Of a stretch of DNA of 64,000 nt, positions 32,401-35,400 are shown piece after piece; position 1 is the first letter of the stretch, and the number at the start of each line of letters is the position of its first letter. The position numbers are program-made. The DNA lies in the NCBI RefSeq assembly GCF_057098645.1, contig NZ_CM169472.1. One strand, written 5' to 3'.

Positions 32401-35400
32401 TAATCGGCGCGAAGATCACCGTTGCGAAGTATTGAGCGGAGTTAAAAATCGACACCGCCGTTCCCCTTTCCTGCGCCGGAAACCAGGCCGCAACAATGCG
32501 ACTGTTGCCGGGGAAAGATGGCGCTTCAGCAAGCCCGACCAGGAAGCGCAGAGTAAACAGGGCAACGATAATGCCGAATCCACTAAAGATATCGACGAAG
32601 CCTTGCAGCAAGGTAAACATCGACCAGATAAAGATCGACCAGAAGTAGACGCGTTTTGAACCAAAACGATCCAGCAACCAACCACCAGGGATCTGCCCGA
32701 TAACATAAGCCCATGAGAAGGCAGAGAACACATAGCCCATTCCCACGGGATCAAGGCCGATATCTTTGGCCATTTCCGAACCGGCAATAGAAAGCGTAGC
32801 GCGGTCGCCGTAGTTGAAGGATGTGACGATAAACAACATCACCACTATCCAGTAACGAGCATTCGTGCGTTTTTCCACACGGCTCGCAGCCTGACTTAAA
32901 GAACTCATTGTTGCACTCCTGAAAATTCGCGTTAGCCACGCTCACTCTGGACTGCGACATCGCCAGGAAATCAGAGGTGACGTAGGGTGTTTTTTGCCGT
33001 TTTTATAGGTCGTTCGCCGAATACGGCGCGTGTTTATATCTGGCAATAGCAGTATAAAAAGCGCGCCATAGCGGCTCACCGTGCAACAACACAACATTAA
33101 TGCGTTCAATGAGGCCCGATTTTGGCATTAGCCCTGGACGGTGGAATCCACTTCACGGAAATGAAAACAAGAACAAGAAAGGAAGGGTTAAAACGAAGAA
33201 ATAAAGAAGAGTATGAAATGGATCGCTTGACTCCAGGCAAACGCCAGTAAAAATCCGCGCTATGAAGCAGTTTTTACTGGCATTTGCCTGAAAAGATTCG
33301 ATTCAGCACCGCTAAAACGACATTTACCGCTCGCTGAACATATCAGGACAACAGCGTGCCCCACTGTTCGACCCACGGATTTGATTCCGTTTCCGGTTCC
33401 GGGTTCTCACTGGCGTCAATCAACAGCATTTCGCCAACCCGCTGAGCGCTCTGTTCCTGCAACAAGGCATCGAACTGTTTGCCGCCATTGCAGAAATTTA
33501 CATAACTGCTGTCGCCGAGCGCAATCACGCCATAACGCAGATTCGGCTGGAAGCCCAGACTATCTTTGATTCCCTGAAAGAGCGGCACAATGCTATCAGG
33601 AAGGTCGCCCTGCCCGGTCGTGGACGTAACCACCAGAACATACTTATCCTGATAGGGCAGCCAGTCGCTTAATTCAGGATCTTCAAATACCGTTGCTTTG
33701 TGGCCCTGTGTGGTCAGAATTGCTTCTGCTTCTTCCGCCACTAACAGCGAATTTCCGTACATGGTGCCGACAAAAATACCAATTTCCGCCATACCGTTTT
33801 CTCCCTGGATTAGGAACTTATCTCTCCATCCTGACCCGATGGCGCACTGAACTCAACCCTTTCATTTTCAGGAAGCAGACCGCGCCAGCCAAATTGTGAT
33901 AACGCCTGCATCCAGGTGTCGTCCAGGCCCGCGTGAATAGTCAGCGGCTCGCCAGTAAAAGGATGCGTCAATGACAACTGACTGGCATGCAGCATTAACC
34001 GCTGAAGACCAAAATGCTCAGCACCGCTGCGATTCTGGCGTAAATCGCCATGTTTGCTATCGCCAATAATCGGATGACGCAAATGGGCAAGATGTCGGCG
34101 AAGCTGATGTTTGCGTCCGGTTTTCGGCTCCAGTTCCACCAGGCCGTAGCGCGTGGTCGGGTAACGTCCGGTCGCTACCGGCATTTCTACGGTCGCCAGA
34201 CCGCGATAATGCGTCACTGCTGGCTGCGGGCCTTTATCTTCGCGGGCAAATTTATCAGCGATTTTGTCCAGTTCTTCCACCAGTGGATAATCCAGCACCG
34301 CTTCTTCCATCAACCAGCCGCGCACAATCGCATGGTAACGTTTCTGGATTTGGTGCTGTTCAAACTGTTGTGCCAGCAGCCGTCCGGCCTCGCTGGATAA
34401 TCCCATCAACAACACACCAGAAGTTGGTCGGTCCAGACGATGAGCAGTAAAAACATGCTGTCCTATCTGGTCACGCACGGTTTGCATGACCACTACTTTC
34501 TCGTCGCGATCCAGCCAGCTGCGGTGAACCAGCCAGCCGGAGGGTTTATTTACCGCAACCAGCCATTCATCCTGATAGAGTATTTCCAGCATTAGCTCGC
34601 ATCATCCGCAAAAAGAGCATCCAGTTTTTCCAACTCAGCCAGAATAAGCGCGCGTTGCGGATGGTCCGTCGCCAGCGCCATTTCATAATAGGGTGCAACA
34701 GCAAAAGCGCCCGGTAACGGCTGGTTGTTATTTAACAAATCGTGCATTCGCGGGATCAGCACCCACTGCAACCACTCCAGTGGTTCCATGGTGTCCATAA
34801 AGAACGGTTGGGTACTATTAAATTGATGCGGCTGGGGTTCATCGTTTCGCCAGTGCTGATGTTCACGCAGTAACGCTTCAAGCGCCTGCAACTGGAGACG
34901 AACGCGGTCATGAGTGGTCATAAAGCAACCTCAATAAGAAAAACTGCCGCGAAGGATAGCAGGAATAAAAAAAGGGAGCACTGTATTCACAGTGCTCCCG
35001 GTTCGTTTCGCAGCATTCCAGCTACTTTTATTGCTCCCTGCTCATCCTTGACAACTTTTCCTCTGGCCTTGCGGCCAATCGTTCATCCTGAACTATTGCT
35101 TCCTGCTCACACCACCCCGATGTGATACTTCATCCTGAAGTGTCCCTGGCCTTCCTGACCCACCGAATCATCCTGACCGGTTCTCATTCTCCATCCTGGA
35201 GGTGTCCTTTAACGCGTCCTGCGTCATCCTCTTCGCTTCATCCAGAAGCCTTTCCCTGAAACACCATCCTGGTGTGTCCTGCAGAAGTGTCATCATCCTG
35301 ATGTTCACTTCGTTGTCTGACTCCCTGTCGACGAAGATAGAATCGTCTTTTTCGCGAAGTCTTACAAGGCGCTTACAGACAATGCCTTAAGGAAAATTTC

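Follow-up and report, generated by a model that had tools for sequence, protein, structure and literature searches.

The minus strand at positions 34964..35332 of the window, a stretch of 64,000 nucleotides of E. coli DNA, is the E. coli csrB gene, intact and located where it is normally found, between syd and yqcC. The gene is already known: work characterising CsrB dates back to 1997, and both Rfam and the K-12 reference annotation contain it. At the csrB locus, the window is 100% identical to O145:H28 strains. A covariance-model search, the check proposed together with the original prediction, returns a full-length match to the Rfam CsrB model (RF00018) at 34964..35323 (minus strand; model positions 1-356 of 356 covered without truncation) with 383.2 bits and E = 1.7e-111, far beyond the gathering score of 71 bits. 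Within the Rfam clan, the CsrB model wins at these positions, and among the CsrB loci scanned with Rfam (the window and eight CsrB-bearing loci) the window has the highest RF00018 score. The MG1655 ncRNA csrB (b4408, 369 nt) aligns to minus-strand positions 34964..35332 and is identical there at 367/369 nt, which is what the original prediction had called a near-exact match to the known RNA; this near-identity, combined with the orthologous position between syd and yqcC, identifies the gene as the b4408 orthologue. The predicted 369-nt minus-strand RNA is found, but its coordinates, given as 34963-35331, were 1 nt off: the +1 nucleotide of this non-coding, CsrA-sequestering type of sRNA is the G at 35332, and its 3′ end lies at 34964. 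The RNA has the defining features of the CsrB/RsmB family, namely the motif display, a structure with covariation, a 3′ terminator and no conserved ORF, and csrB is present in 5425/5426 complete E. coli genomes. Our analysis establishes the identity, anatomy, conservation and covariation of csrB, its promoter elements and the non-conservation of the ORFs that overlap it. The observations are almost certainly best explained jointly by a csrB gene with an activator-dependent promoter, whose GGA-displaying RNA sequesters CsrA and decays through RNase E, the overlapping ORFs being by-products.

The placement of the RNA in the yqcC-syd gap is confirmed by annotation transfer from strain RM9872 (100% identical), from which the coordinates of the flanking genes were taken. 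The upstream neighbour syd occupies 35543..36088 (minus strand), with its stop codon 20 nt from the UvrY palindrome described below, and the downstream neighbour yqcC occupies 34592..34921 (minus strand) and starts 42 nt past the csrB 3′ end. Among the enterobacterial loci with room for the respective gene, syd is found upstream of CsrB in 93/93 and yqcC downstream in 84/103. The gene barA, encoding the sensor kinase that phosphorylates UvrY, was likewise transferred from RM9872 to 25865..28621 (plus strand), where it reads through 918 aa without stops; its end lies ~6.3 kb from the csrB 3′ end, in agreement with the distance of about 6 kb noted earlier. The accompanying claim that the BarA system controls csrB transcription is also backed by the literature, in which BarA-UvrY is documented as the activator of csrB (PMC4682653, PMC7652899). 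In Enterobacterales, barA lies within 1.8-9.5 kb of csrB and in the same orientation at 13 of the 18 loci that have 8 kb or more of flank. We considered a cis relationship between barA and csrB and found no mechanism for it, BarA acting in trans via UvrY; since UvrY is encoded elsewhere and no such mechanism was found, we treat the linkage as synteny only.

Upstream of +1, a candidate core promoter at 35339..35367 (minus strand) consists of TTGTAA (35367..35362), a 17-nt spacer and GATTCT (35344..35339), the latter ending 6 nt upstream of +1. Judging from the sequence and its cross-genus conservation, these are likely the -35 and -10 hexamers of csrB, and the promoter blocks TTGTAAGAC and GATTCTAT are nearly invariant over 20 enterobacterial genera and strains. 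The hexamers resemble the sigma-70 consensus only weakly, with 3/6 positions matching in the -10 hexamer, and scanning 34500..35900 for this consensus yielded no promoter, as expected for an activator-dependent promoter with such a hexamer. Overlapping the -35 region, TGTAAGCGCCTTGTAAG at 35361..35377 (minus strand) contains two TGTAAG half-site-like repeats; the downstream copy, TTGTAAG, is retained in nearly all 20 sequences aligned, and the upstream copy only in the Escherichia, Citrobacter, Salmonella and Intestinirhabdus rows of the alignment. These repeats correspond to the promoter-proximal UvrY crosslinking zone, which extends from -56 to +25 and in which direct in vitro UvrY binding was not seen (PMC4682653). 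The UvrY-P site proper is an 18-nt palindrome, TGTGAGAGATCTCTTACA, at 35506..35523 (minus strand), centred at -183/-182 and found as an exact match with 0 expected by chance; it is near-invariant in the 20 enterobacterial sequences and identical in both sequence and position to the DNase-footprinted UvrY site (PMC4682653). Five bp downstream of the palindrome, TGTAGGAGA at 35492..35500 (minus strand), conserved in the 20-sequence alignment, matches the partial extra UvrY half-site described beside it (PMC4682653). An IHF-consensus-like site lies at 35425..35437 (minus strand), where the window reads AAACAACATGTTG and K-12 reads AATCAAAATGTTG, a perfect WATCAANNNNTTR; WATCAA-N4-TTR is present at this position in most genera aligned, and the motif is probably the putative IHF site published between the two UvrY sites (PMC4682653). 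The sequence element of a UvrY-dependent promoter is present, and both UvrY binding and UvrY dependence are predicted for the window's strain.

The numerous GGA-containing, CAGGAUG-type repeats that had been noticed in the RNA are borne out by counting. Within its 369 nt, csrB contains 22 GGA on the RNA strand versus 2 on the antisense strand, compared with a window background per 369 nt of 4.9 (minus-strand mean) and 4.35 (plus-strand mean); the highest count in any other 369-nt stretch on both strands of the window is 11, the plus-strand maximum. AGGA occurs 14 times (dinucleotide shuffles: mean 4.9, maximum 12) and AGGATG 8 times (shuffles: mean 0.42, maximum 4), with 6 copies of the exact CAGGATG and 9 of CAGGA[ACT]G. 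Counting the motifs in predicted loops, also proposed as a check, shows that most of them are displayed in single-stranded segments or hairpin loops: in an RNAalifold consensus of 67 homologues (73-99% identity), GGA is found in 10/13 hairpin loops and 19/22 GGA are unpaired, and in the single-sequence csrB fold, whose stability corresponds to z = -4.7, the mean unpaired probability is 0.80 for GGA bases versus 0.44 overall. The consensus comprises 65 pairs, with 98.5% of cells paired; compensatory double-sided changes occur in 27 of the pairs, a covariation that is supportive and not independent, since the structure was predicted from the same 67-sequence alignment. Most GGA sites are retained in >58/67 homologues; because the homologues were gathered by means of a 20-nt pattern that spans GGA sites 19-20, the conservation of those two sites is partly by construction. 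About nine of the 120 pattern matches were chance matches of 20-22 nt in unrelated taxa (including Algoriphagus, Anaerolineae, Desulfovibrio, Paenibacillus and Bathyarchaeota) and were excluded after blastn. The number and arrangement of the GGA motifs, the location of site 22 in the terminator and the positions A327/A331 agree with the published map of the 369-nt CsrB (PMC5027483).

At the 3′ end, the terminator scan identifies an intrinsic terminator hairpin at 34974..34999 (minus strand) with 11 bp, 7 G-C pairs and a 4-nt GAAU loop, followed by a U-tract at 34973..34964 (minus strand; U7, TTTTTTTATT). The terminator had earlier been described as strong; its predicted free energy is -21.1 kcal/mol (K-12 allele, -20.7). 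GGA no. 22 sits in the 5′ arm of the hairpin, and the helix is conserved across the 67-sequence alignment. Directly upstream lies an unstructured segment at 35002..35006 (minus strand) with A327 and A331, both A as in K-12. In the published CsrB, these are the RNase E cleavage positions within its 'necessary cleavage site' (PMC5027483); by sequence identity, the same role is expected of the segment in the window. In the fold and the alignment, GGA sites 20 (35037..35035) and 21 (35019..35017) together span 35017..35037 on the minus strand, and CsrA at these two sites is reported to protect CsrB from RNase E (PMC5027483). Both are kept in 67/67 homologues, site 20 partly by construction as it falls within the search pattern.

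Compared with K-12 CsrB (b4408), the window shares the syd-csrB-yqcC locus, the length of 369 nt, the 22 GGA sites, the terminator, the RNase E site and the UvrY palindrome at -183/-182, and it differs by five SNPs, two within the RNA and the other three in the promoter IHF-like site, with no difference in kind. The RNA mismatches are at position 303 (window 35030), with U in the window versus C in K-12, and at position 340 (window 34993, in the terminator stem), with A in the window versus G in K-12; the latter converts a K-12 G.U pair to an A-U pair and makes the terminator slightly more stable. The three IHF-like-site SNPs are at 35435, 35431 and 35424, and the window's exact 71-nt promoter allele occurs in 47/5425 complete E. 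coli genomes. These five substitutions and the rarity of the promoter allele could be read as signs of a decaying or functionally altered csrB, not a working gene. However, both RNA substitutions spare the GGA motifs, one of them slightly stabilising the terminator, and the allele preserves the RNase E site, the -35/-10 blocks, the UvrY palindrome and every one of the 22 GGA. Moreover, the RF00018 score tops those of the other CsrB loci scanned with Rfam, and the variant A at the IHF position (AAACA instead of AATCA) is also found in Intestinirhabdus, Kosakonia and Cedecea, so that an impaired copy is very improbable and a working csrB remains our reading. Due to the three substitutions in the IHF-consensus-like site, the contribution of IHF in the window's strain is uncertain.

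The other alternatives concern the ORFs that overlap csrB. The gap had been described as ORF-free with two spurious plus-strand entries; both entries exist in the mechanical ORF list and are explained by the RNA, but other mechanical ORFs are also present in the gap. The 71-aa ORF at 34910..35125 (plus strand) is antisense to the csrB 3′ part and the yqcC start, the 62-aa ORF at 35202..35390 (plus strand, GTG start) is antisense to the csrB 5′ part and the promoter, and a 46-aa ORF at 35168..35308 (minus strand, GTG start) lies on the sense strand inside csrB; we judge none of them to be a gene. A search of homologous loci with the ORF peptides by tblastn gave many partial matches, which we rejected as coding evidence; since they reflect the nucleotide conservation of the RNA, the analysis of stops and frames on the alignment is the informative test. 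By this test, the open frames of 62-71 codons opposite csrB, the shorter of which remains open in the four E. coli-clade sequences examined, are not conserved. Only 1/67 aligned enterobacterial homologues keeps the 71-aa ORF intact: one other E. coli, 98.9% identical at the nucleotide level, lacks its ATG, and a frameshift with a stop at codon 16 disrupts it in E. coli E69, Escherichia sp. E1V33 and E. albertii. The 62-aa ORF survives whole in 5/67 (the 4 E. coli-clade sequences and one coincidental case); a stop interrupts it at codon 50 in E. albertii and already at codon 14 in Salmonella and most Citrobacter. Further, a Pfam scan of four csrB-overlapping ORFs gave nothing at E <= 1, the exact 71-aa and 62-aa sequences are absent from a collection of 15 billion proteins, and no CDS is annotated at the csrB position in a sample of 40 E. 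coli records drawn from RefSeq across the ranking, all of which upholds the earlier view that both entries are spurious. Their Ser/Leu/Pro-rich composition is expected from the antisense of a GGA-rich RNA, and the 62-aa ORF crosses the csrB promoter, the 71-aa ORF the terminator and the yqcC start. There is hardly any chance that either or both encode real small proteins. Equally small is the chance that CsrB is a dual-function RNA with a translated 46-aa ORF (35308..35168). This ORF is on the transcribed strand, is intact in all 5 Escherichia sequences and has been deposited as a 'hypothetical protein' in UniRef and in numerous GenBank records of E. coli; 163 contigs carry its exact sequence and >146 carry a 56-aa form. 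However, it is kept in only 5/67 homologues, all Escherichia, while the RNA helices and GGA motifs persist; elsewhere (Citrobacter, Salmonella, Enterobacter and others), the GTG is changed to GAG, GCG or ACG or the segment length differs by non-multiples of 3. It also has no Pfam match in the above scan, the first codon of the deposited 56-aa form would be a non-standard ATC, located 6 nt ahead of the mapped +1, and the region would be coated by CsrA, itself a translational repressor. On exact look-up, the mis-annotation predicted from these ORFs is absent for the two on the plus strand and present for the one on the sense strand.

CsrC of E. coli and RsmX/Y/Z of Pseudomonas share with CsrB the principle of multiple GGA motifs in hairpin loops and an intrinsic terminator and, like CsrB, are activated via BarA-UvrY or GacS-GacA through an upstream palindrome; they differ from it in their shorter length, their smaller number of GGA sites, their loci and their Rfam families. 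The palindrome of the csrC promoter is less symmetric than that of csrB, and csrC activation is IHF-independent (PMC4682653). The binding of CsrA, UvrY and IHF and the route of decay through RNase E and CsrD come from the literature and, transferred to the window by near-identity, would give the following mechanism. BarA would sense short-chain carboxylates, and phosphorylated UvrY would then turn csrB transcription on from a weak, activator-dependent promoter, binding the 18-nt palindrome at -183/-182 with the help of IHF, which would bend the intervening A+T-rich DNA. Transcription would stop at the strong intrinsic terminator, and the product would be an untranslated RNA of 369 nt, made of short hairpins and single-stranded linkers with 22 GGA, mostly as (C)AGGAUG, that sequesters the regulatory protein CsrA; given 99.5% identity to the characterised RNA, binding of multiple CsrA dimers and antagonism of CsrA in vivo are expected (PMC7652899, PMC5027483). 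Turnover would begin with an RNase E cut in the unstructured segment directly upstream of the terminator, a cut that CsrA on GGA sites 20 and 21 would block until CsrD overcomes the block. The ORFs overlapping csrB on either strand are by-products of the csrB sequence.

The finding is no discovery, and its value is practical, lying in annotation. In the above sample of 40 RefSeq records, we found no annotation of any kind at the csrB position, and among the records inspected csrB is named only in the curated MG1655 record. Left unannotated, the locus passes for a vacant gap of 620 bp in which ORF callers can place genes; an RNA-aware genome scan can suppress the false 'hypothetical protein' entries of 46 and 56 aa that arise from the csrB sense strand. 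The locus also serves as a clean positive control, a known sRNA having been identified correctly from sequence alone. Beyond annotation, IHF is required, according to published work, for optimal UvrY binding and csrB activation, and the lineage that carries the variant IHF-like site might therefore differ in CsrB expression or IHF dependence. We offer only as a doubtful suggestion that the minority promoter allele of the O145:H28 lineage, in which AATCAAAATGTTG and an overlapping mirror site are changed to AAACAACATGTTG, might alter the CsrB level or its dependence on IHF; if true, the whole Csr network of a Shiga-toxin-producing lineage would have a shifted set-point.

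On direct reading, the minus strand between 34800 and 35500 carries a string of short GGA-bearing repeats followed by a G+C-rich hairpin and a U-tract. Searching the whole window against Rfam 15 covariance models at gathering thresholds, we obtained a full-length match to the CsrB family (RF00018), as the original prediction had anticipated, at 34964..35323 (-), with 383.2 bits (gathering 71), E = 1.7e-111 and coverage of model positions 1-356 of 356. The DNA is from E. coli: a 1-kb query at the csrB site matches several O145:H28 chromosomes at 100% identity and occurs in 5425 of the 5426 complete E. 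coli genomes. The curated MG1655 record lists 'ncRNA csrB b4408', 369 nt long and flanked by yqcC and syd, and this K-12 sequence maps to 34964..35332 (-) with two mismatches, at RNA positions 303 (window 35030) and 340 (window 34993). Both leave the GGA motifs untouched, and the terminator substitution replaces a G.U pair with A-U. The original prediction thus named the correct object, given the Rfam and MG1655 matches, but its coordinates, 34963..35331, are one base off; an ungapped K-12 comparison there gives 272 mismatches, all due to the register shift. The element is the known csrB gene, intact and at its usual locus.

The 369-nt RNA strand contains 22 GGA motifs and its antisense strand 2, against window means per 369 nt of 4.9 (minus strand) and 4.35 (plus strand); no other 369-nt stretch of the window exceeds 11, a count reached on the plus strand. 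There are 14 AGGA (dinucleotide shuffles average 4.9, with a maximum of 12) and 8 AGGATG (average 0.42, maximum 4), while exact CAGGATG is present six times and CAGGA[ACT]G nine times, bearing out the numerous CAGGAUG-type repeats that had been described. The predicted fold reaches -121.5 kcal/mol, compared with -98.2 ± 4.9 for shuffles (z = -4.7). The strong terminator claimed at the outset was also recovered: the terminator scan places it at 34999..34974 (-), with an 11-bp stem containing seven G-C pairs, a 4-nt loop and then TTTTTTTATT, at a predicted free energy of -21.1 kcal/mol. On the plus strand (34974..34999) the same hairpin scores as terminator-like too, with a weak tail, GGTTCGTTTC, which probably reflects mere stem symmetry.

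Published work describes CsrB as a 369-nt RNA whose GGA sites are numbered 1 to 22, the last of them lying in the terminator hairpin; directly upstream of the terminator is an unstructured segment, the 'necessary cleavage site', where RNase E cuts at A327 and A331, and the CsrA sites guarding against this cleavage are GGA sites 20 and 21 (Vakulskas et al. 2016, PMC5027483). The window copy agrees with this map: it likewise has 22 GGA motifs, the last at position 335 in the 5' arm of the terminator, sites 20 and 21 fall at RNA positions 296 and 314, and positions 327 and 331 are both A.

An exact-pattern scan with a 20-nt conserved CsrB segment across a 100,044-species genome collection returned at least 120 loci; among the matches listed, Enterobacterales account for about 100 CsrB homologues (67-99% identity), and about nine others, from unrelated taxa, are chance short matches and not CsrB. 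We built an alignment of the window sequence and 66 full-length homologues. For these 67 sequences RNAalifold predicts a consensus of 65 pairs; 98.5% of cells form standard pairs, and 27 pairs show compensatory changes on both sides, the consensus being predicted from the same alignment used to score the pairing. In line with the original prediction, GGA motifs occupy 10 of the 13 consensus hairpin loops, and 19 of the 22 are unpaired. Most individual sites are kept in 58-67 of the 67 sequences, although the 67/67 conservation of sites 19 and 20, which lie inside the search pattern, is partly by construction. Homologues carry 20-28 GGA motifs in RNAs of 356-390 nt, and Rfam independently called full-length CsrB at the E. 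albertii, Salmonella, Hafnia, Serratia, Erwinia and Edwardsiella loci.

Several individual loci stand out. Enterobacillus tribolii DSM 103736 (locus L076, 7700..9299) has three full-length CsrB copies in direct tandem, about 610 bp apart, each scoring 232-239 Rfam bits and with 29-33 GGA per 480-nt stretch around the copy. Locus L122, from an assembly labelled as the Bacteroidota genus Chryseobacterium (sp. 18061), carries a full-length CsrB at 2527..2886 (322 bits; 84% identity to E. coli); a 420-kb enterobacterial contig seems to have been mislabelled here or to be a contaminant. In E. coli MARGA_3 (NZ_CM170101.1), csrB is naturally disrupted by an IS3-family transposase inserted after about nt 91 of the RNA. 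Of the 5426 E. coli genomes, one lacks any csrB match, and in one case the match falls on a record typed as plasmid.

The dependence of csrB and csrC on BarA-UvrY and the sequestration mechanism have been reviewed (PMC7652899). In E. coli, the phosphorylated UvrY footprint on csrB covers an 18-nt palindrome, TGTGAGAGATCTCTTACA, centred at -183/-182; a partial TGTAGGAGA follows it after 5 bp, the interval between palindrome and promoter holds a putative IHF site, and crosslinking also occurs in a second zone, -56 to +25 (Zere et al. 2015, PMC4682653). The window carries an exact copy of the palindrome at 35506..35523 (0 matches expected by chance); counted from +1 at 35332, this copy is centred at -183/-182, and TGTAGGAGA follows at 35500..35492. 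In an alignment of 20 enterobacterial upstream regions, the palindrome together with TGTAGGAGATCGCC, as well as TTGTAAGAC and GATTCTAT, are near-invariant. TTGTAAGAC would supply the putative -35 element (35367..35362) and GATTCTAT the -10 element GATTCT (35344..35339), with a 17-nt spacer. A sigma-70 consensus scan reported zero promoters for csrB, in keeping with a weak promoter that depends on an activator. Three SNPs relative to K-12 (35435, 35431, 35424) change the perfect IHF consensus AATCAAAATGTTG to AAACAACATGTTG, and just 47 of the 5425 complete E. coli genomes have the exact 71-nt promoter allele. Since other genera in the upstream alignment likewise have A at the variant T position, the window's IHF-like site may well still work. 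The stretch holding these SNPs (-80 to -110) is also strongly variable among other E. coli and Escherichia genomes.

The mechanical ORF list does contain the two plus-strand entries that the original prediction had dismissed as proteins, 34910..35125 (71 aa, ATG) and 35202..35390 (62 aa, GTG), along with a 45-aa ORF at 35122..35259 (+) and a 46-aa GTG ORF sense to csrB at 35168..35308 (-). A Pfam scan of all four gave zero matches at E <= 1. The 71-aa ORF is intact in 1 of the 67 sequences, the window itself: its start is ATA in another E. coli at 98.9% identity, and in E. coli E69, Escherichia sp. E1V33 and E. albertii a +1 indel shifts the frame into a stop at codon 16. The 62-aa ORF is intact in 5/67 (four from the E. 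coli clade and one coincidental case); in E. albertii it is stopped at codon 50, in Salmonella and most Citrobacter at codon 14. Unlike these ORFs, the flanking genes are kept (Syd in 93/93 loci with room, YqcC in 84/103). An exact look-up among about 15 billion proteins found neither the 71-aa nor the 62-aa product; given this absence and the lack of conservation, the advice against annotating them holds. The ORF that truly leaked into databases is a third one, the 46-aa ORF on csrB's own strand, found by exact look-up in GenBank and UniRef as 'hypothetical protein' and on 163 contigs. It is intact in 5/67, all Escherichia, and not conserved beyond that genus; elsewhere the start codon is altered, the segment length is off by non-multiples of 3, or stops are premature. 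A 56-aa extended form, on more than 146 contigs, would begin with an ATC codon lying 6 nt before the mapped +1 and so is not translatable from CsrB.

By transfer from the identical RM9872 annotation, barA lies at 25865..28621 (+) and ends about 6.3 kb from the csrB 3' end, close to the 6 kb first estimated, with gudD, gudX, gudP, yqcA, truC and yqcC between. Of 18 loci with 8 kb or more of flanking sequence on the barA side, 13 have a BarA homologue 1.8-9.5 kb away from CsrB and in the same relative orientation. E. albertii, a Pluralibacter and Erwinia lack the gud genes, and there the two lie 1.8 kb apart; gudPXD is present in E. coli, the linkage being seen in the window (25865..34964) and at comparative loci L007, L037, L063 and L083. 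The barA-csrB linkage across Enterobacterales is real and old; we assign it no mechanism, because BarA signals in trans via UvrY. On the other side, only 42 nt (34922..34963) separate the csrB 3' end from the start of yqcC on the same strand, leaving yqcC-truC-yqcA without room for a promoter of its own outside csrB; these genes must be transcribed from a promoter inside csrB or via read-through of its strong terminator.

Other RNAs in the window are a full-length GcvB sRNA (RF00022, 199 bits) at 53504..53709 (+), a short 43-nt match to the Rfam ES036 (CssrF) sRNA at 56724..56766 (-) with 46.5 bits (gathering 37.6), and three tandem tRNA-Met (CAT) genes with equal Rfam scores and about 110-bp spacing at 58194..58489 (+), an arrangement that matches metZ-metW-metV, the initiator tRNA cluster.

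We sampled 40 RefSeq E. coli records at even intervals down the ranking, and none has any feature, CDS or ncRNA, annotated at csrB; the curated MG1655 record is the only one inspected that names the gene. This annotation gap renders csrB, a major global regulator, invisible in most E. coli annotations.
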